DNA of 34,025 bases from Methanosarcinales archaeon (GTDB lineage Archaea > Halobacteriota > Syntropharchaeia > Alkanophagales > Methanospirareceae). The notes beneath the pieces were generated by a model. It saw only the letters and a list, made by a program, of their open reading frames with translations, searched no databases and was not told where the DNA came from. The DNA lies in the NCBI GenBank assembly GCA_025464275.1, contig JAODGR010000080.1, forward strand, positions 1 to 34,025, given 5' to 3'. Below are positions 1 through 7,825 of the stretch, piece after piece; positions within the stretch are counted from its first letter, which is position 1; each line of letters starts with the position of its first letter. The position numbers were made by a program, and so were the translations under genes.

Positions 1-54
1 ATGCTCCAGTGGCGGTATCTCGAGATTAAAATTGAGATTCATATCGTATTCAGC

Positions 55-684
55 TTAAGGTTTACGTGCTTGTGGTAGATCATGCCTCTCTATCCAAGGA
101 TACTTTGCCTCTCCAAACCTATTCGTTATTTCCATACGAATTTTCTCTCTGCAGTGCTTCCTTAAATAGTCAATGGCTTTACGTAATGACCCATCATCGG
201 TAACGAGGTATTTACTACATTCTAAAATTGAATTTGCGTAAATCATCAAGTTATATGGCTCCACTGATGGTTTTGAGCCCTCATAAAGAACCTCTGCCAG
301 TTCAAATACATCATTCTGGTCTACATTTGAGAACTCAATACCGAGACTTTTGCTACTCTGAACAAAAACCTCAATGATGTCTTTTATTTTTGTTCTTTCC
401 TGGTATTCAAGCTCATAAGTAGCTTCTCTACCAAAAATTTCATCAAATGGTGCCCGCTCTTCTCTCTTTTTATCATAATAAAACCACCTGTGATAAAGAA
501 AATACAATTCCAAAATGCTGATTTTGCTTATAACTAATTTGTGCCCGTTATTCAGAATTTGCTGTAAAAAGGTATAATATTTTTCCAATTTACTTACATC
601 TCCTCCCTCTTCTTTCACTCTAAGGTATTCTGAAGTTTTAACCAATATATTTGTGTCAAGAAAATAGATCTCTATCAGTGACAT
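55..684 (-). CDS. PIN-domain nuclease (enlarged, 209 aa); last visible gene of the AT-rich operon
   Basis: ATG at 684-682, TAA at 57-55. N-terminal IYFLDTNILV matches the canonical first PIN strand with its acidic residue. C-terminal YLVTDDGSL supplies the distal PIN aspartates. It is about 70-80 aa longer than VapC-type PINs. It starts 7 nt after the stop of the ATPase gene. Motif-based only. Confidence 0.65.
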   Translation of the reverse strand: MSLIEIYFLDTNILVKTSEYLRVKEEGGDVSKLEKYYTFLQQILNNGHKLVISKISILELYFLYHRWFYYDKKREERAPFDEIFGREATYELEYQERTKIKDIIEVFVQSSKSLGIEFSNVDQNDVFELAEVLYEGSKPSVEPYNLMIYANSILECSKYLVTDDGSLRKAIDYLRKHCREKIRMEITNRFGEAKYPWIERHDLPQARKP

Positions 685-691
685 ATCTATC

Positions 692-1942
692 CTATCTTTT
701 CCTTTCCTTAAATTCGGCTATCCACATGTCAGCAATTTCTTTTATAAGGATTTCGTTTATCAATATCTGTCTACTCACTGCAATTTCAATAGCCTCGTGA
801 CAAAAATTCAAAAGGTTTCTTGGGTTTGTCTTTACAATATCGGGTAGTAATTCCCATAAATTATCAGGAAACGGAAACAAAGTCTCTTTCTCTTCACGAG
901 CATCGTTAAGGTAAGCCAGAACAAGTTTCTTCGCACCATCCGGATCAAGGGGTTGAATTCGAATTGGTCTCAGAAGTCGTGATGCCAGGGGCTCACAATA
1001 CTCTTCTGTTAATTCCCAAGCGGGTGGTACCATAGCAATAATTATACCCAGAGGCATGGCACTTACCAGGTCAAAAAGACGTCTTAAGGTGTATTCGTAA
1101 TCTGTTGCCTCTTTCACAGTGAACCGTTTCGACGCTGGGATTTCCTCAAATTCATCGAGAAGAATCAAGATACAGCTATAATTGTCCACTCTTTTGATAA
1201 GAGAGAAAATTGCTGAAAGGAACTCATAATCGCCTATTTCCTTTTGCCTTTTCGGAGCTATATCCTCCCAATCAAAATAACTCTTATAATGACTCTCCAT
1301 GAGAATACGAGACAGTTTACGTGCACCATTAGCATTTACTCCAATAGATTTCTCAATAATTTCACTGAAAATACTCAATATAGCGTCTATATTAGCCCTC
1401 AATTTCTTAGCGTAGTCAAAGAAAGTTCTGTGATCACTTAGAATATGTTCTTGCACCGATGTCCCAAACCAGGGGTATCTCCCCTTTTCTGAGGGAAAAA
1501 TCTTGTAATACCAATCTAAATCATTTTTTTTCACCCTGCTTAGTAGCTCTTCCCGTATCACATTCCATAATTTCCTCACTATATTCCCTAAACCTATTGC
1601 TCTGATTACACTACCTGTAAAGTCATGAAAACCATATCCAGGGGATTGGATATAAAAACTGGCGACCTTAGGAAACTCCTTCTTTACAAAGTAATGAACC
1701 ATTTTAAGATAAAAAGTCTTTCCAGACCCATATTCTCCAATAAGCGCGCGACCTACTTTTTTATCTCCGTGAAGTAACGCATTAAGAAAATTTTCAAGCT
1801 CTTCTTTCAACCTCTTATCCGGGAAGGTTATGACCCTTGGGGGCTCCAGTAAAGCACCATCTGAAGGAAAAGGGTTTCTGGAAAGCCCCAGGGGTTTATA
1901 CCTCTCTTCGGGTTCCATCTCTTTAATCTCTAATCTCTCCAT
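692..1942 (-). CDS. AAA+ P-loop ATPase of the ORC/Cdc6-ExeA-like kind
   Basis: Walker A GEYGSGKT (nt 1738-1715). Walker B ILILLDEFEE. ExeA-like N-terminal lead-in (LGLSRNPFP). Sensor-2-like NPRNLLNFC near the C-terminus. ATG 1942-1940, TAG 694-692. Overlaps the upstream gene by 13 nt. Confidence 0.75.
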   Translation of the reverse strand: MERLEIKEMEPEERYKPLGLSRNPFPSDGALLEPPRVITFPDKRLKEELENFLNALLHGDKKVGRALIGEYGSGKTFYLKMVHYFVKKEFPKVASFYIQSPGYGFHDFTGSVIRAIGLGNIVRKLWNVIREELLSRVKKNDLDWYYKIFPSEKGRYPWFGTSVQEHILSDHRTFFDYAKKLRANIDAILSIFSEIIEKSIGVNANGARKLSRILMESHYKSYFDWEDIAPKRQKEIGDYEFLSAIFSLIKRVDNYSCILILLDEFEEIPASKRFTVKEATDYEYTLRRLFDLVSAMPLGIIIAMVPPAWELTEEYCEPLASRLLRPIRIQPLDPDGAKKLVLAYLNDAREEKETLFPFPDNLWELLPDIVKTNPRNLLNFCHEAIEIAVSRQILINEILIKEIADMWIAEFKERKR

Positions 1943-2952
1943 TGTTTCGTCTCCCAGAGTTTGTTATGAACAATTATATGAGTCATCCATATATTATTCA
2001 ATTTTATAAAGTTCTTTAAAACTTTTTCATCGGTCTTCTTTGATAGGCTTCTAAAGGTCAAAGTACCCTTTGAGGAACTACTGAATTTGATATACTCCGG
2101 TAATCTTCGCCATGCCTCCAGAAAAAAATGATTTTGGATTTCTTTTACAGAGACCCTTAACAAAGGTGCTAATTCAAATATCGTCAGGTCAATGGGGAAG
2201 AATGTCCACTTTGAGTGCGGAGAAGGTCTATATAGTTGCAGGAATTTATCCAAAAGATCTTCAAATCGTAGTGGTGATGATAGCGGATTGAGTGGATAAA
2301 CAATGTGCCTTTTTTCATCAATATATATCTCCTCAATCAGAGAACATTCTCTCCCCCATAGTTGCAGTCCCCATTCTATAGCCATACGTTCTATCGGGGT
2401 TTTAAGAATAATTTGGTCACCTGTTTTCTCATTAACATATCTTTTTGTCCACATTTTCCTTCTTTTCTTCTTCAATTCCATCTCCACCATTACAGGAAGA
2501 ATAGATACCACTTCTCCATATTTTATAAAATCGTCCCATGAGAAAGCTTTTTTACCCATAAATATCCAGAAGAAAGCTTCTCTACAATCAGGGTTGTCAA
2601 TGAGTATTTTTTGAAAAATAAGCTTTTCTTCAATGTTCAAAGGAGCAAGGTAACGATTTAATTCGATAAGCTTATGAACTTCCGTTTTATCCATGTTTGA
2701 TACATACTTTCTATTCGTATTTTGTTTAATTAGCTGCAATTTAAGAGCGGTTCGTATACAATGATAAATAGGCGTTTTAGCAAGCGGAGCTCCTTCTTTT
2801 TTCACAAAAATCCCCTCTTCAATACCTCTATTAGCGATTTCGGTATAACGAAGACCATTATATTTTTCAATTAGCAACAGAATATCCCTTATTTTTGAGA
2901 GAGGGACTTCTTTTCTCATCCAGTAAATTCCATCTCTTATCGCTTTTTCCAT
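1930..2952 (-). CDS. Hypothetical 340-aa protein, possible N-terminal winged-helix segment, function unknown
   Basis: Long ORF with an ATG start (2952-2950). It overlaps both neighbours (16 nt with the methyltransferase stop, 13 nt with the ATPase start) and shares their AT-rich codon usage. I recognise no catalytic motif. LRYTEIANRGIEEGIF looks HTH-like, but that is a weak inference. Confidence 0.6.
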   Translation of the reverse strand: MEKAIRDGIYWMRKEVPLSKIRDILLLIEKYNGLRYTEIANRGIEEGIFVKKEGAPLAKTPIYHCIRTALKLQLIKQNTNRKYVSNMDKTEVHKLIELNRYLAPLNIEEKLIFQKILIDNPDCREAFFWIFMGKKAFSWDDFIKYGEVVSILPVMVEMELKKKRRKMWTKRYVNEKTGDQIILKTPIERMAIEWGLQLWGRECSLIEEIYIDEKRHIVYPLNPLSSPLRFEDLLDKFLQLYRPSPHSKWTFFPIDLTIFELAPLLRVSVKEIQNHFFLEAWRRLPEYIKFSSSSKGTLTFRSLSKKTDEKVLKNFIKLNNIWMTHIIVHNKLWETKQWRD

Positions 2953-4193
2953 ATCACTATGCTCTCCTTTGCTGATATCTTTCCAAATTTACTCATCTGC
3001 TGGGGACTATTTCCTCTTAACCTTGCCACAAGTGTTTCCTGATGTGTTAATCCGAGTGAATCGGCTATCTCTATTAAAATATCGCTAACAGGAACCAAAG
3101 AACCCCCATACCTCACATCTCCTATCACAAAAGCAGCAAAACACCCGGGCTTTAATACCCTCACTACCTCCTTAAGCACCAGATACATATCCTCAAAATA
3201 GCCCCTTATCATAGGGATAACATGCTTATTAGGCAAAGTTTCTTCTTCCAATTTTTCTATGATCTCTTTTAATTTAAAAGGTTCTTCATAACCTTCTGCA
3301 GCAAAAACTTCTTTTGCTTCTACATGGGAACGTAAGGTTTTATATCTCAATCTTTTTATATCTCTCTCTGATCTTAGAAAACCAATGGCTAATTCTAAGA
3401 TATACACTCTCGTATAATCGTGCCTGTTAAGATAGGGAGGTGAAGTAATAACAGCATCAAAGGATTCTCCTGGAAAATGAATTTCCCGTGCATCTCCTAT
3501 TTGAGCCCTGGATTTAGTATTATTCTGCGGGTTGCTGTGTTCGATATCGCTGAGCATTTCATTAATTTTGCTGAACAAGATTTCTTTAAAGTCGGGTATC
3601 TTTTTGTCAGTGACTATCCGTAAAAAGCCACCGTCTTTCCTGGCAAAAGCAACTTTTTCCGTAATAGAAAGAAGAGCGGTGAGGAAGAAATATTTTAATT
3701 CTTTATCTCCCATCTCCTGGACCCAATTTTTAACCACGAAAATATCAGATAGCACATCGGGGTCAAAGAACTTATGGAGCATCTTGATTTCAGGGATTAA
3801 AGGATTAGTTTTGTCAGGATTGCTCAGGAGCTTATCAAGTTCTTCAATTTTATACTTGATTTTATCTATATTATAGTTTTGTAATTTGGCATTAGAGATA
3901 AATACGGAAAGGGGTAGAATGTCTATCCCGATAGCAGATATTCCCCTCTCCTTTGCAGCCAATAGAGTAGTCCCACTGCCACAAAAAGGGTCTAATATGA
4001 CGCTTTCACAGCCAAGATTAAAATTGTCTATTAAATACCATACTAAATCCCTTGAGAAACTATGGTTAAAATGATACCATCTATAAATAGGAAGTGTTCT
4101 ATTTTGGTATGGTGTTACCAGAAAATGGAACTTATTTTTTTCCTCTATCATTCTAACACATCCTCCAGTTCCTTGCTCTAACTCAAGCTTCAT
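2937..4193 (-). CDS. DNA methyltransferase, amino-methylating type (N6-adenine or N4-cytosine)
   Basis: AdoMet motif I ILDPFCGSGTT (DPFCGSGTT = nt 3992-3966, codon 68 onward). Catalytic motif IV SPPY (nt 3443-3432, codon 251 onward). ATG 4193-4191, TAA 2939-2937. First gene of the operon. Confidence 0.8.
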   Translation of the reverse strand: MKLELEQGTGGCVRMIEEKNKFHFLVTPYQNRTLPIYRWYHFNHSFSRDLVWYLIDNFNLGCESVILDPFCGSGTTLLAAKERGISAIGIDILPLSVFISNAKLQNYNIDKIKYKIEELDKLLSNPDKTNPLIPEIKMLHKFFDPDVLSDIFVVKNWVQEMGDKELKYFFLTALLSITEKVAFARKDGGFLRIVTDKKIPDFKEILFSKINEMLSDIEHSNPQNNTKSRAQIGDAREIHFPGESFDAVITSPPYLNRHDYTRVYILELAIGFLRSERDIKRLRYKTLRSHVEAKEVFAAEGYEEPFKLKEIIEKLEEETLPNKHVIPMIRGYFEDMYLVLKEVVRVLKPGCFAAFVIGDVRYGGSLVPVSDILIEIADSLGLTHQETLVARLRGNSPQQMSKFGKISAKESIVIWKKR

Positions 4194-4338
4194 TCCGCTT
4201 CTCTACCGTTCAACATCTCCGCGGTATAAACAGTCAGGTTTTAAGGTATATTTTAATAGCTCCTTAGCCATAAAAAAATTATCTTCATATATTCATATGG
4301 TACATGTATGATATAACACAATAGCATAAGCGAGGCAT
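4194..4338. promoter_or_regulatory. Divergent AT-rich promoter spacer and compositional boundary between the island and the core genome
   Basis: Lies between the methyltransferase start (4193, minus) and the aminotransferase start (4339, plus). TATA-like tracts: ggtataaac 4223-4231 (reverse complement TTTATACC, about 30-38 nt upstream of the minus-strand ATG), ggtatattttaatag 4245-4259, and tgatataac 4309-4317 upstream of the plus-strand ATG. Positions are guesses without transcript data. Confidence 0.3.
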
Positions 4339-5493
4339 ATGAAGTGCAGAATAGCAGATAGGGTGAACCAGATAAGGGGTTCGGGAATAAGGGAATTCTT
4401 TGATATCGCGCAGCAGATGGAGGATGTAATCTCCCTGGGTGTTGGTGAGCCTGACTTTGTAACCCCGTGGAGCATAAGAGAGGCTTGTATATTCGCTCTG
4501 GAGAAGGGTTACACATCCTATACCTCCAACTGGGGGCTGATGGAGCTCAGGCAGGCACTATCTGACTATACATACCGTGAGACGGGCGTGTATTACAACC
4601 CTGAGGATGAGATACTCATCACGACCGGAGTGAGTGAAGCTCTCGACCTCGCACTTCGTGCGATTCTCAATCCAGGTGATGAGGTAATCCTGCATGAGCC
4701 CTCTTATGTGAGTTACAAACCCTGTACGATATTCACAGGTGCCACTCCGGTCTGTATAGATACGAGTATGGAAGAGGGTTTCAAACTCCGTGCGGATAAG
4801 ATGAAGCCCACGGAGAGGACGAAAGCGGTGGTCCTGAACTATCCAAACAACCCTACGGGCGCGATAATGGGGAGGAGCGACCTGGAAGAGATAGCGGATG
4901 TGGTGACCGAGCACGATTTGATTGTTATCTCAGATGAGATTTACAGTAAGCTAACATATGAAGGCAGACATACCTGCTTCTCCTCACTGAACGGTATGAA
5001 GGAGCGTACAATACTGCTGAATGGCTTCTCAAAGGCGTATGCCATGACTGGCTGGCGAATTGGATATGCCATGGGACCCAGTGACCTTATAGGTGCGATG
5101 ATGAAGATACACCAGTATATAATGCTCTGTGCACCGATTACCGCACAGATGGCAGCCTTAGAAGCGCTCAGGAGCAGTAATGAGGTGGAGAAGATGGTCG
5201 CGGAGTACAACAGACGGAGGAGATTGATGATACAGGGTATGAAAGCGATAGGATTGGAATGCTTCGAGCCAGGAGGTGCGTTCTACGCCTTCCCTTCCAT
5301 CACTCCTACCGGACTGACTTCGGAGGAGTTTGCACGCCGGTTGCTGATGGATGAGAAGGTGGTAGTGATACCTGGGAGCGTATTCGGAGCGAGTGGCGAG
5401 GGTTTCATAAGGTGCGCTTATGCAGTCTCAGAATATGAGCTTAAAGACGCGCTGGAACGCATGGGGGAGTTCATATCGGGACTGACTAAATAG
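4339..5493 (+). CDS. Class I/II PLP-dependent aminotransferase (aspartate aminotransferase-like)
   Basis: NYPNNPTG motif. PLP-lysine motif SKAYAMTGWRIGY. Full-length 384 aa with an ATG start. Confidence 0.85.
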   Translation: MKCRIADRVNQIRGSGIREFFDIAQQMEDVISLGVGEPDFVTPWSIREACIFALEKGYTSYTSNWGLMELRQALSDYTYRETGVYYNPEDEILITTGVSEALDLALRAILNPGDEVILHEPSYVSYKPCTIFTGATPVCIDTSMEEGFKLRADKMKPTERTKAVVLNYPNNPTGAIMGRSDLEEIADVVTEHDLIVISDEIYSKLTYEGRHTCFSSLNGMKERTILLNGFSKAYAMTGWRIGYAMGPSDLIGAMMKIHQYIMLCAPITAQMAALEALRSSNEVEKMVAEYNRRRRLMIQGMKAIGLECFEPGGAFYAFPSITPTGLTSEEFARRLLMDEKVVVIPGSVFGASGEGFIRCAYAVSEYELKDALERMGEFISGLTK

Positions 5494-5579: not shown

Positions 5580-5652
5580 AGTCCCGTGGTGTAGTGGTCA
5601 AGCATACAGGCCTTTGGAGCCTGTGACAGGGGTTCGAATCCTCTCGGGACTA
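5580..5652 (+). tRNA. tRNA-Gln (anticodon UUG), 73 nt, no encoded CCA, no intron
   Basis: Hand-folded cloverleaf. Acceptor AGTCCCG/CGGGACT. D stem GTGT/GCAT with two G-U pairs. Anticodon stem CAGGC/GCCTG, loop CTTTGGA (anticodon TTG). 4-nt variable region. T stem AGGGG/CCTCT, T loop TTCGAAT. Discriminator A. The AGUCCCG start is typical of archaeal tRNA-Gln. Confidence 0.9.
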
Positions 5653-6105
5653 CTGCTCCATCGTCCCACCTCCGGCTTCTCCACCCTTCCTCAGCCTCTT
5701 CACCATCTTCACCGCCGCTTCTACCGCCCTCTTCGCATAATCAACCCGTTCCTGCGCCTCCAGTCTGGTCATTCCCGGTCCTGATACACCCAGTGTCACG
5801 GGCTTATCGTACTCCAGTGAGAGGTCCATGATCTTCCGTGTGAGCTGTGCAGCGATCATCTCGTCGTGCTCCGTTGCACCCTCTATCACACAGCCCAGTG
5901 TGACCACTGCGTCCACATCCCCACCTCTCAGTAATTCCTTCACTGCAAGTGGCATATCAAACGTTCCAGGTGTATAAAACGTACGAATGACCCTGGCACC
6001 CAGGAACTCTGCGTGTTCACGTGCCAGTATCTCCATTTGATACGTGATATCCCTGTGGAACTCAGATACCACAAAACCCAGTTTTATCTCCTCCTCTTCT
6101 AACAT
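5650..6105 (-). CDS. ribH: 6,7-dimethyl-8-ribityllumazine synthase (archaeal type)
   Basis: The sequence runs LGFVVSEFHRDITY...HAEFLGA...PGTFDMPLAVKELL...DAVVTLGCVIEGATEHDE...YDKPVTLGVSGPGMTRLEAQERVDYAKRAVEAAVKMVKRL. It closely matches my memory of methanogen RibH. Its stop codon overlaps the last 3 nt of tRNA-Gln on the other strand. Confidence 0.85.
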   Translation of the reverse strand: MLEEEEIKLGFVVSEFHRDITYQMEILAREHAEFLGARVIRTFYTPGTFDMPLAVKELLRGGDVDAVVTLGCVIEGATEHDEMIAAQLTRKIMDLSLEYDKPVTLGVSGPGMTRLEAQERVDYAKRAVEAAVKMVKRLRKGGEAGGGTMEQ

Positions 6106-6200: not shown

Positions 6201-6248
6201 TGGCTCTGGCTCCGACTCTGACTCTGGCTCTGCCTCTGCCTCTACTCC
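6201..6248. repeat. Eight imperfect tandem hexamers (consensus TGRCTC)
   Basis: tggctc tggctc cgactc tgactc tggctc tgcctc tgcctc tactcc. The tract spans the stop codon (6242-6244) of the surface-protein gene and runs into the spacer upstream of ribH. Confidence 0.8.
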
Positions 6249-7825
6249 CATTCCTTCCTCTCCCCTGGTCCAATAGCAGCTGGCAGTTTATTCCTATTCC
6301 GCTCTCTCAGCCTCCTGAGCCAGATGTACAGCCCGAAGGATACTATCCCGAGCAGGATAATAATCAATAATCTACGTGCGAGCCAGAGGATGTATTCAAT
6401 ATTGAACCTGATTGATGGACCAGAGGCATTATTCCGCTTCTCCAGTGCGGTGGTGCTGTTGATATCGCCGGTGGATGCGGATGTGGATGTGGATGCGGGC
6501 AGTGGTGTCGGTATTGCTGTGCTGCCTGTTGTAGATGTGGGTGTGGATGTGGGTGTGGATGTGGATGGAGGTATGGATGGTGATGCAGGCGCGGGTGTGG
6601 GTGTAGCCGTAGCTGTAGCTGTGGCTTGCGTTCCCGTAGCCGGGACTATCTTGACGTACTCCCGGGAGGGTAACCATCGCGTCCTCGCCTCCTCAGGTGT
6701 CAGTACGAGATACATCTTATCATCCTCTCCTTCAACTCTGATCTCGCGTGCGCATCCAACGATTCGCCCCGCTCTGCCCACTATTATAATCCTGTCATCG
6801 GGTCTGAGATTGAACCCGAACCGGTCATCTACCAGCATCATATCATCATGCTCAATCTCATAGTGCCAGGGGCTCTCAACCACTACCACCCCATACCTTG
6901 TGGATAGTGCCCCTGAGCCAGCAGATGAGTTCATGGATTTCAGCCTGATGGTGTAGTTTGATAGCCCGTAGCCATGTTTTATCTCCTCCACCTTCGCTTC
7001 CAGGGTTATTGTATCGTTCGCATAGCTGTTGTCCCGGATGAACTCCTCATAGCTCAGGGCATATCTGCTCGGCGGTATCGGCACAGCGCCCAGACCGCGG
7101 CATTCCACACCGTCTGGAATACCATCTCCATCGGTATCCTCAGCCAGTGGGTCTGTTACAGCTCCATAAGAGCCAAATACCTCTTCTGAATCTGAGAGTC
7201 CATCATTGTCGGTATCACGCTCGGTGGGGTCGGTTTTATAGATATACACCTCGGCACCATCACTCAGACCATCATAATCGGAATCTGCGCGGGTAGGGTT
7301 CGTACCTCTGGATATCTCCTCACCGTCATCCAACCCGTCATAGTCCGTATCCGGGTTCGTGGGGTCCAGCCGGTAGTGGTACTTCCCCATCAATTTGAGT
7401 ATCTCCTCTGTATCGGTTATCTCTCGCATCTCGGTGGTATTCTCTATGTGGATGTACATACAGAGCTCCTCAAGGTCATTCAGCCCATCTCCATCGGTAT
7501 CCTCAGCCAGTGGGTCTGTATGGAATCCAAACATCCCGGTTGATTCCGCATAGTTCGATACACCATCATCGTCGGTATCATCATCCCAGGGGTCACTCTC
7601 TCTTTTATACTCCTGATAATTCGTCAATCCATTGTGGTTCACATCCACATTCGCATCCATAGCATTGTTGGGATTCAAGCCATGCTCCACCTCCCAGCCG
7701 TCTGGAATGCCATCGCAGTCCGTATCCCTGGATAGTGGATGCTGAGCAGCTGCAGCGGCAAGCGAAGCTAACAGAGCAATGCCGAGCAATGCTGAGAGCA
7801 GAATTTTAAACTTCAACTCCTGCAT
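6242..7825 (-). CDS. Secreted, membrane-anchored protein with thrombospondin type 3-like Ca-binding repeats, a Thr/Pro/Ser stalk and a C-terminal TM helix
   Basis: Signal peptide MQELKFKILLSALLGIALLASLAAAAA. At least 7 DxDxDGxxD units (DTDCDGIPD, DDTDDDGVSN, DTDGDGLND, DTDYDGLDD, DSDYDGLSD, DTDNDGLSD, DTDGDGIPD). ATATATATPTPAPASPSIPPSTSTPTSTPTSTT linker. Hydrophobic LLIIILLGIVSFGLYIWL followed by a basic tail. Confidence 0.8.
   Translation of the reverse strand: MQELKFKILLSALLGIALLASLAAAAAQHPLSRDTDCDGIPDGWEVEHGLNPNNAMDANVDVNHNGLTNYQEYKRESDPWDDDTDDDGVSNYAESTGMFGFHTDPLAEDTDGDGLNDLEELCMYIHIENTTEMREITDTEEILKLMGKYHYRLDPTNPDTDYDGLDDGEEISRGTNPTRADSDYDGLSDGAEVYIYKTDPTERDTDNDGLSDSEEVFGSYGAVTDPLAEDTDGDGIPDGVECRGLGAVPIPPSRYALSYEEFIRDNSYANDTITLEAKVEEIKHGYGLSNYTIRLKSMNSSAGSGALSTRYGVVVVESPWHYEIEHDDMMLVDDRFGFNLRPDDRIIIVGRAGRIVGCAREIRVEGEDDKMYLVLTPEEARTRWLPSREYVKIVPATGTQATATATATPTPAPASPSIPPSTSTPTSTPTSTTGSTAIPTPLPASTSTSASTGDINSTTALEKRNNASGPSIRFNIEYILWLARRLLIIILLGIVSFGLYIWLRRLRERNRNKLPAAIGPGERKEWE
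6471..6630. repeat. In-frame low-complexity hexamer array (gtggat / gtgggt / gtagct units) encoding the Thr/Pro/Ser/Ala stalk
   Basis: Visible DNA periodicity of 6 nt inside CDS 6242..7825. It also creates spurious repeat-peptide ORFs in other frames. Confidence 0.75.

Follow-up and report, generated by a model that had tools for sequence, protein, structure and literature searches.

A recurring four-gene cassette of methylase, protein X, AAA+ ATPase and PIN nuclease in an archaeal contig: a candidate methylation-based defence system of an undescribed family

The stretch of DNA analysed here, called the window throughout, comprises the 34,025 nucleotides (nt) of contig JAODGR010000080.1 from a Methanosarcinales archaeon (assembly GCA_025464275.1), and at its beginning lies a cassette of four genes that is a candidate defence system. 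All four genes are on the minus strand and encode, in the order of reading, a DNA methylase (2937-4193, an open frame of 418 amino acids, aa), a protein here named X (1930-2952, 340 aa), an AAA+ ATPase (692-1942, 416 aa) and a PIN nuclease (55-684, 209 aa). The open reading frames (ORFs) are packed as one coupled unit with a 16-nt overlap, a 13-nt overlap and a 7-nt gap, exactly as claimed in a preliminary description made from the sequence alone, and the motifs given there (DPFCGSGTT, SPPY, GEYGSGKT, LLDEFEE, NPRNLLNF, FLDTNIL and LVTDD) are all found in the translations. That description had proposed an undescribed methylation-associated defence system. Comparative genomics supports this candidate through the co-occurrence of the genes and through their contexts, from which we infer the defence activity.

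The AT-rich start of the window, noted before from counts made by hand, is confirmed by a computed profile. In 500-nt windows the fraction of guanine and cytosine (GC) is 0.336-0.392 over positions 1-4500 and 0.43-0.57 over the remaining 29.5 kb, and GC makes up 36.9% of the four-gene block but 51.3% of the sequence outside it. In a 150-nt profile the change is located at about 4300-4400, at the right edge of the interval (4194-4338) within which the switch had been placed, and an aminotransferase gene divergent to the cassette starts at 4339. The closest relatives of the cassette are found on two contigs of anaerobic methanotrophic archaea of group 1 (ANME-1), loci L018 and L021. The 85% DNA identity to them is limited to window positions 52-4173 and the flanks are unrelated, so that the mobile unit consists of exactly these four genes. 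On the methylase side the similarity begins at a conserved 5' edge (4152-4173, minus strand), upstream of which the sequences are unrelated. It is followed by an AT-rich spacer between the cassette and the aminotransferase gene (4174-4338, not assigned to a strand), which forms the junction with host sequence. The spacer contains TTTATA-like boxes on the minus strand near 4227 and 4250 and is likely, to judge from the sequence, to be a promoter region. At the opposite side the window ends 51 nt past the conserved block and the far edge of the AT-rich island lies outside the contig; in L018 and L021 the next gene beyond that end is brxL.

The methylase passes the Pfam model N6_N4_Mtase (PF01555) with 54.5 bits against a cut-off of 26.7 (2e-14) and is matched over its full length by the PADLOC model MTase_II (PDLC03224; 3e-81, residues 15-417). 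Models of RNA methylases reach 20-37 bits against cut-offs of 180-316 (TIGR01177, 36.9 against 316.6; Trm14, 22.9 against 280; RlmD, 19.8 against 183.6); a tRNA or RNA methyltransferase, the objection foreseen in the preliminary description, is thereby ruled out. Motif I (DPFCGSGTT, residue 68) lies ahead of motif IV (SPPY, residue 251); both are intact and SPPY is present in 37/37 cassette methylases. Conservation is lowest in the segment between the two motifs, as would be expected if this were a target-recognition region. The SPP(Y/F) form of motif IV is typical of N4-cytosine methylases, and some members of the family are labelled M.MjaII or cytosine-N4-specific by their source annotation. 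The product of the enzyme is probably N4-methylcytosine (m4C).

The start of the methylase gene is most likely internal to the open frame, at Met15, giving a gene of 404 aa at 2937-4151. This is because the public gene call and the ANME-1 orthologues have 404 aa, the sequence conserved in the orthologues starts about 20 nt ahead of the internal ATG (position 4151), and a Shine-Dalgarno-like GGAGG is found at 4166-4162, 10 nt before this codon. A relative of the methylase, 44% identical, was found in a locus (L099) without X, ATPase or PIN genes; its 345-aa neighbour was tested as a possible X and is not X.

Protein X had been described as lacking any recognisable motif, and this holds: neither Pfam, NCBIfam nor PADLOC gave a match, and 55 members of the family are likewise without one. 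The family is represented by only 16 clusters in an index of 5.8 billion proteins, and by 164 representatives in a profile search. A first structural model from 15 close homologues was poor (predicted local distance difference test, pLDDT, 70) and its Foldseek matches were uninformative; it was replaced by an AlphaFold model from 55 homologues with a pLDDT of 95.1 and a pTM (predicted template modelling score) of 0.91. In this model a winged helix at the N-terminus is followed by a second helical unit, which bears a long and variable beta-hairpin, and by an alpha/beta domain at the C-terminus, which ends in a beta-hairpin and a helix carrying the conserved H325 and H329. The Foldseek comparison suggested in the preliminary description gave no match with E < 0.01 in the PDB or in a viral library; the N-terminus matches only winged-helix regulators, and the recognition regions of FokI (TM 0.29) and Nt.BspD6I align weakly with the model. 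Sequence searches of X and of the ATPase against the PDB returned nothing significant. Judged by this model, X is an uncharacterised family whose fold, though predicted with confidence, matches no solved structure or viral-library entry outside the winged helix.

The conserved polar residues of X are R13, Y63-H64-x-R in the recognition helix, N120, D122, C123, D/E207-E208, H325 and H329. Of the four proteins, X differs most from its ANME-1 orthologues (76% identity against 82-88% for the others), and the changes are concentrated in the long beta-hairpin at residues 141-180 (nt ~2413-2532) and in residues 81-100 and 221-240. A comparison of the central region of the methylase between the window and L018 gave no clear signal of a specificity switch joint with X, only the patches of X being variable. 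A link between X and the ATPase is seen in protein P0100 of the representative library, a continuous fusion of 712 aa with an X-family N-terminal half and an ATPase-family C-terminal half (motifs LGLKFNPFP, GSYGSGKS and LIDEFED). X is predicted to be a DNA reader or a partner of the ATPase.

In the ATPase the invariant features are the Walker A motif GxYGxGK(T/S), the Walker B motif DEF(E/D), an N-terminal NPF motif and the positions G69, G72, G74, K75, D263-E264-F265, R322 and R375. Its Pfam matches are weak, and include BrxC_BrxD (25.9 bits over 42 residues only, 47-88), AAA_22 and NACHT. The BrxD equivalog model, whose cut-off is 350, gives 18.8 bits, and the BrxD model of PADLOC gives a local match of 17.8 bits. 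A profile search of the PDB returned weak matches in the P-loop region to DnaI, DnaC, ORC4 and Cdc6 (E 0.001-0.04). From these weak matches the protein is tentatively placed as ORC/Cdc6-ExeA-BrxD-like, and a switch or loader function is predicted for it.

The last gene of the cassette encodes the predicted effector, which passes the Pfam PIN model (PF01850) with 26.1 bits against a cut-off of 23.6; among the members of the family, 18/40 match this model on their own. In 66 homologues from cassettes the acidic residues D10 and D164 are present in 100% and E59 in 98%. Position 145 is D in 91% of them and N in the clade of the window, which has D163 too. The earlier view of this protein as a PIN nuclease thus stands. 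It may not be the only nuclease of the cassette, given the uncharacterised C-terminal domain of X. In most relatives its length is 250-290 aa, compared with 209 aa in the window, and about 85 residues are inserted between E59 and position 145. In VapBC modules the PIN toxin is about 130 aa long and its gene comes after that of a small antitoxin; a toxin-antitoxin pair of this type was ruled out by the length of the protein, its long insert and the 416-aa ATPase encoded upstream.

The cassette was then followed in other genomes. A search with X gave the 16 close clusters, a search with the ATPase added a second tier at 25-30% identity, and an ATPase-seeded scan of metagenome contigs yielded 80 more loci. 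In these loci ORFs were called, local iterative profile searches were run from the four window proteins, and the ATPases were clustered at 90% identity into 64 lineages, most of which were found by the ATPase search. All contigs from the X search that are long enough share the order methylase-X-ATPase-PIN, and the same four-gene layout is found in the second tier. X is directly upstream of the ATPase in 51/52 testable lineages, and a PIN-family gene directly downstream in 52/56, with a weak PIN_12 match in a 53rd. The same methylase family is present in the locus in 48/51. The order X-ATPase-PIN is constant across lineages and the methylase gene moves around it: upstream in 25 lineages (and 4 truncated ones) and downstream in 14, while 3 have it on the opposite strand. 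Moreover, the four proteins diverge in parallel, with identities for methylase, X, ATPase and PIN of 85/76/88/82% between the window and L018 and of 49/58/60/59% between the window and L003. The four genes form a conserved, co-inherited unit, with an invariant core X-ATPase-PIN and the methylase on either side. The recurrence of the cassette as a unit, which the preliminary description had put forward as a check, is found down to 25-30% identity, in variable contexts and beside known defence genes.

In three lineages (L038:3578-6589, L048:1521-4465 and L058:5962-8903) the trio X-ATPase-PIN is present but the locus, as far as it was fetched, contains no methylase of the cassette type. The flanking genes encode enolase, adenine deaminase, a histidine kinase or a DDE transposase. 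These trios favour a sensor-effector role for the core, as guard or in abortive infection, or else reflect decay.

Both archaea and bacteria carry the cassette. When 185,579 species genomes were scanned with a narrow alignment of X, the only match for the close clade was Candidatus Methanophagaceae (ANME-1) isolate G60ANME1, and the other hosts include a metagenome-assembled genome of Helarchaeota (Asgard), Bacillota (Syntrophomonadaceae), Cloacimonadota (Candidatus Cloacimonas) and a deltaproteobacterium. The GC content of the cassette is below that of its flanks in 27/29 loci, by a mean of 6.2 points, in hosts with GC contents from 34% to 69%. A scan of the IMG/VR viral contigs and a search of a phage protein collection with the ATPase gave no match.

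The cassette resides mainly among restriction, BREX (bacteriophage exclusion) and abortive-infection genes. The 87 immediate neighbours counted at 48 dereplicated loci include 7 type IIG enzymes, 5 type III Mod subunits, 7 ResIII and 6 HerA-like proteins, 2 BrxL, 2 Schlafen-like proteins and 2 of the phospholipase D (PLD) type. In L002 the cassette is preceded by the BREX genes for PglZ and BrxL, in L001 it is flanked by AbiEi and an MmeI-like enzyme, and in L018 and L021 it has on one side a gene of 1241 aa that is Eco57I/MmeI-like (type IIG/PglX-like) and on the other brxL. Three other loci (L012, L016 and L033) have it beside PLD-SNF2 and Eco57I-like pairs. In one clade (L063:679-9378, L014, L041, L060, L073 and L093) it is found between a type III Mod gene (618-687 aa) and a gene for a ResIII helicase-endonuclease (~700-860 aa), and there it appears to split a type III restriction operon.

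Some further genes recur close to the cassette. A pair encoding proteins of ~360-390 aa and ~560-600 aa lies between the PIN and methylase genes in L025 (6624-9446), L026 and L028, and just upstream of the cassette in L051, L062 and L090. Pfam gave no match for either protein of the pair in L025, and the six HerA/mad8-like neighbours detected by PADLOC are probably, by their size, the larger protein of this pair. In L009 (514-4834), just upstream of a copy of the cassette, there is another BrxC_BrxD-like ATPase of 389 aa, preceded by a 416-aa protein with a weak DUF234 match, followed by a HEPN protein and adjoined by a type I specificity subunit; this set may be a related sensor-ATPase-RNase module. 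A resolvase gene and a TnpB-like (Cas12f1-like_TNB) gene are placed immediately downstream of the Syntrophomonadaceae-type cassette in L006 (4425-6297), and TnpB fragments are found near those of Cloacimonas type in L014 (12697-13011) and L015 (9686-10159). Such genes are possible vehicles for the spread of the cassette.

In the window the cassette stands alone beside housekeeping genes, so such partners are not needed in cis. The remaining window genes have ordinary archaeal functions, among them an F420-dependent dehydrogenase beta subunit, an A/V-type ATPase subunit I, a thiamine-pyrophosphate enzyme, an Lhr-type helicase and radical S-adenosylmethionine enzymes. The tRNA-Gln gene at 5580-5653 was considered as an integration site and set aside, as it is not at the edge of the island. 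A protein of 527 aa encoded on the minus strand at 6242-7825 is probably a surface protein that binds calcium; it has many acidic repeats of the DxDxDG type (thrombospondin type 3-like), a linker rich in Thr, Pro and Ser, and a hydrophobic anchor at the C-terminus.

That the gene combination corresponds to no named system had been suggested before, and our searches agree, although a name that is very recent or given only in a database may have escaped them. In PADLOC-DB v2 only the methylase is recognised, as a generic type II methyltransferase; X has no match, the ATPase a local one to BrxD and the PIN protein weak ones to Csx21. NCBIfam and Pfam assign none of the four proteins to a named system. 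Full-text searches of the literature returned no description of the cassette, and it is not described in a survey of BREX diversity, a survey of archaeal immunity, the DefensePredictor paper or a paper on ANME-1 hotspots. MADS and the PIN candidate PDC-S70 were compared with the cassette and neither matches; for MADS (mad1-mad8) only the methylase has a local match, to mad2 (4e-14, residues 48-124), and the other three proteins have none.

The preliminary description had pointed to Septu, PARIS and Gabija as comparators, but these turn out to be poor ones. Their ATPases are of the ABC type (OLD or Rad50-like) and are paired with HNH or TOPRIM nucleases, whereas the cassette has an AAA+-like ATPase and a PIN protein, and PADLOC found no match to PtuA/B, AriA/B or GajA/B in it. 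MANTIS (Gao_RL, Hma or type-2 DUF499-centred BREX-related system) and BREX are closer.

MANTIS is the closest analogue. Systems of the MANTIS/DUF499 group are defined by a DUF499 ATPase, a DUF1156-type N6-adenine methylase, a helicase-nuclease and, in type 2, a DUF3780 protein (PMC12839542; bioRxiv 10.64898/2026.09.23.753747). In MANTIS the AAA+ ATPase MtsA, of the ORC/Cdc6 clade, and its small partner MtsB load the alpha-group methylase MtsC and license the nuclease MtsD (bioRxiv 10.64898/2026.09.23.753747). Like MANTIS, the cassette would be a four-gene methylation-based system, with an AAA+ ATPase of putative ORC/Cdc6 type, a small partner of unknown fold, a methylase in which motif I precedes motif IV around a central target-recognition region, and a nuclease effector, and both occur in bacteria and archaea. 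However, the cassette ATPase has 416 aa, no DUF499 tail and a local match as its sole BREX-type Pfam match; the methylase is a 404-aa N6_N4 enzyme with SPPY instead of DPPY; there is no DUF3780-type (MtsB) partner and no PLD-helicase, and the effector is a PIN protein. None of the Pfam families of the MANTIS/DUF499 systems was found in the four cassette proteins or in 55 X homologues, and no helicase gene in the cassette.

With BREX the cassette has in common a methylase, here predicted to mark self DNA, and an AAA+ ATPase putatively related to ORC/Cdc6, whose only family-level matches are the BrxC_BrxD and BrxD models; moreover it is often found beside BREX genes. Unlike BREX of types 1-6 it is devoid of PglZ, a PglX-type methylase, BrxA, BrxB and BrxL. 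As to the BREX core (PglZ, PglX and BrxC), no cassette protein matches PglZ or PglX, the BREX genes being only neighbours at other loci. The methylase belongs to the M.MjaII-like N4/N6 family of classical type II restriction-modification (R-M) systems, but in the cassette X, the AAA+ ATPase and PIN stand in place of a simple endonuclease and no restriction endonuclease is recognisable. Guard nucleases such as PrrC with EcoprrI and those of the RloC type are similar in placing an NTPase and an RNase-type nuclease inside another restriction operon, as is seen for the cassette in several lineages. PrrC is a single ABC-type NTPase-HEPN protein with neither a methylase of its own nor a DNA-binding partner, and PADLOC found no sequence relationship between it and the cassette. 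The cassette thus looks BREX/MANTIS-like in its predicted way of working, yet it belongs to no family tested.

We are inclined, by a little more than an even chance, to regard window positions 52-4173 as one horizontally acquired operon for a compact defence system that works by methylation, is self-contained and belongs to a family not described so far. As the layout of the cassette parallels that of MANTIS, a mechanism can be proposed by analogy. The methylase would mark the host DNA at a short motif, probably as m4C. X would bind DNA through the recognition helix with its conserved Y-H-x-R and act as partner of the ORC/Cdc6-like ATPase, which would be an ATP-driven switch assembling on DNA that lacks the mark. 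The ATPase may load the methylase too, as do MtsA and MtsB in MANTIS and BrxC in BREX. The switch would then license the PIN protein to cut the invading DNA or, in abortive infection, cellular and viral RNA.

Several points weigh against this proposal. The defence function is deduced from gene content and neighbourhood, and X, as the proposed reader, shows only a few conserved polar residues. The window's clade carries N for D at one catalytic position of the PIN protein. PIN domains are mostly RNases, which makes the restriction of DNA uncertain. The frequent embedding of the cassette in other restriction systems could mean that it depends on them. Finally, a strict restriction complex should be lethal without its methylase. 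The trios that have none therefore suggest a core that may be blind to methylation, provided that they are not decayed and have no methylase gene elsewhere.

Distant homologues of the ATPase (22-23% identity over 90% of the query, E ~1e-11) are present on nine haloarchaeal plasmids, for example pHsi139 of Haloarcula sinaiiensis ATCC 33800 (NZ_CP073372.1), where they are annotated as 'BREX system ATP-binding domain'. In these loci (L101:4065-7134, L102:4045-8228 and L103-L107) the ATPase gene is part of a conserved overlapping trio with genes for a 344-aa tRNA-guanine-transglycosylase (TGT)-like protein and a hypothetical protein of ~297 aa. The trio adjoins a TGT-like protein of ~900-970 aa, and QueD-like, queuosine-precursor-transporter and EVE genes occur in various plasmids; in Salinigranum an HNH endonuclease follows the trio ATPase. 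An hhalign comparison of the 297-aa protein with X gave a probability of 21-27%, and homology between the two is not demonstrated. The haloarchaeal trio, found in cultured hosts, may follow the same logic with 7-deazaguanine, and it offers an independent hint linking this ATPase lineage to DNA modification.

With these relatives in mind we tentatively put forward a bolder form of our proposal, one that we hold to be plausible but rather less than probable. The cassette would be the first example of an undescribed, miniature BREX/MANTIS-like family in which X as reader and a small ORC/Cdc6-type switch couple m4C self-marking to a PIN effector, and the ATPase lineage would be a general ATP-dependent loader or checker of epigenetic self-marks in archaea and bacteria, working also with TGT-like (possibly 7-deazaguanine) enzymes.

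The alternative that survives best, although we consider it unlikely, is that the cassette is a guard or back-up module accessory to neighbouring restriction or BREX systems, as PrrC is to EcoprrI and PARIS to BREX. X and the ATPase would monitor the neighbour or sense anti-restriction proteins of phages and release the PIN protein as an RNase that aborts the infection, the methylase being secondary. This would agree with the position of the cassette between type III mod and res genes in the L063 clade, between the 1241-aa gene and brxL in L018 and L021, and beside PLD-SNF2 and Eco57I-like pairs in L012, L016 and L033. The hypervariable surface segments of X (81-100, 141-180 and 221-240) are as expected of a sensor in an arms race, methylase-less trios exist, and there is precedent in the PIN endoRNases that serve as back-up effectors at BREX loci (PMC12839542). 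However, the window cassette is alone beside housekeeping genes, the partner systems vary by lineage so that no single client system emerges, and the methylase, needless for a pure guard, is kept in 48/51 lineages and translationally coupled.

A further explanation, less likely again, is an elaborated type II R-M system in which X is a sequence-specific endonuclease paired with the methylase, and the ATPase and PIN protein are regulators or a second effector. In the commonest gene order X does follow and overlap the methylase gene, and the methylase family is present in L099 without the other three genes. Many restriction endonucleases have no detectable sequence relatives, the C-terminus of X carries the conserved H325 and H329, and its model aligns weakly with FokI and Nt.BspD6I. 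Nevertheless, neither Pfam, a PDB sequence search nor Foldseek revealed a nuclease fold or motif in X. Moreover X is tied to the ATPase by constant adjacency and by fusion, whereas the methylase is at the far end in 14 lineages and is missing from some loci.

Quite improbable, finally, is a non-immune addiction or epigenetic module of a mobile element, with PIN as a restrained toxin and the methylase and ATPase serving maintenance or regulation: the foreign composition, the patchy distribution, the resolvase/TnpB or transposase genes adjoining L006, L014 and L058 and the commonness of PIN toxins in toxin-antitoxin systems speak for it, but the conserved unit is four genes with which no integrase, replication or transfer genes travel (such a role being less likely for this reason), IMG/VR and the phage collection gave no match and plasmids only distant ATPase matches, a PIN protein of 209-290 aa with a long insert after a 416-aa ATPase is unlike VapBC pairs, and the neighbours are predominantly defence genes.

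Apart from CRISPR and classical restriction, the immune systems of archaea have been poorly charted (PMC12988326). If our proposal is true, the cassette would add an immune system common to ANME-1, Asgard archaea and several bacterial phyla. Its four proteins total fewer than 1,400 residues, against more than 3,000 for MANTIS or BREX, and it would offer a tractable minimal model for a question of the BREX field, namely how AAA+ ATPases couple DNA methylation to restriction. X would add a protein family absent from Pfam, with a predicted fold that has no solved match beyond the winged helix. The presence of a PIN effector on a methylation system also raises the question whether a self-marking system may act by cutting RNA, in abortive infection, instead of DNA.

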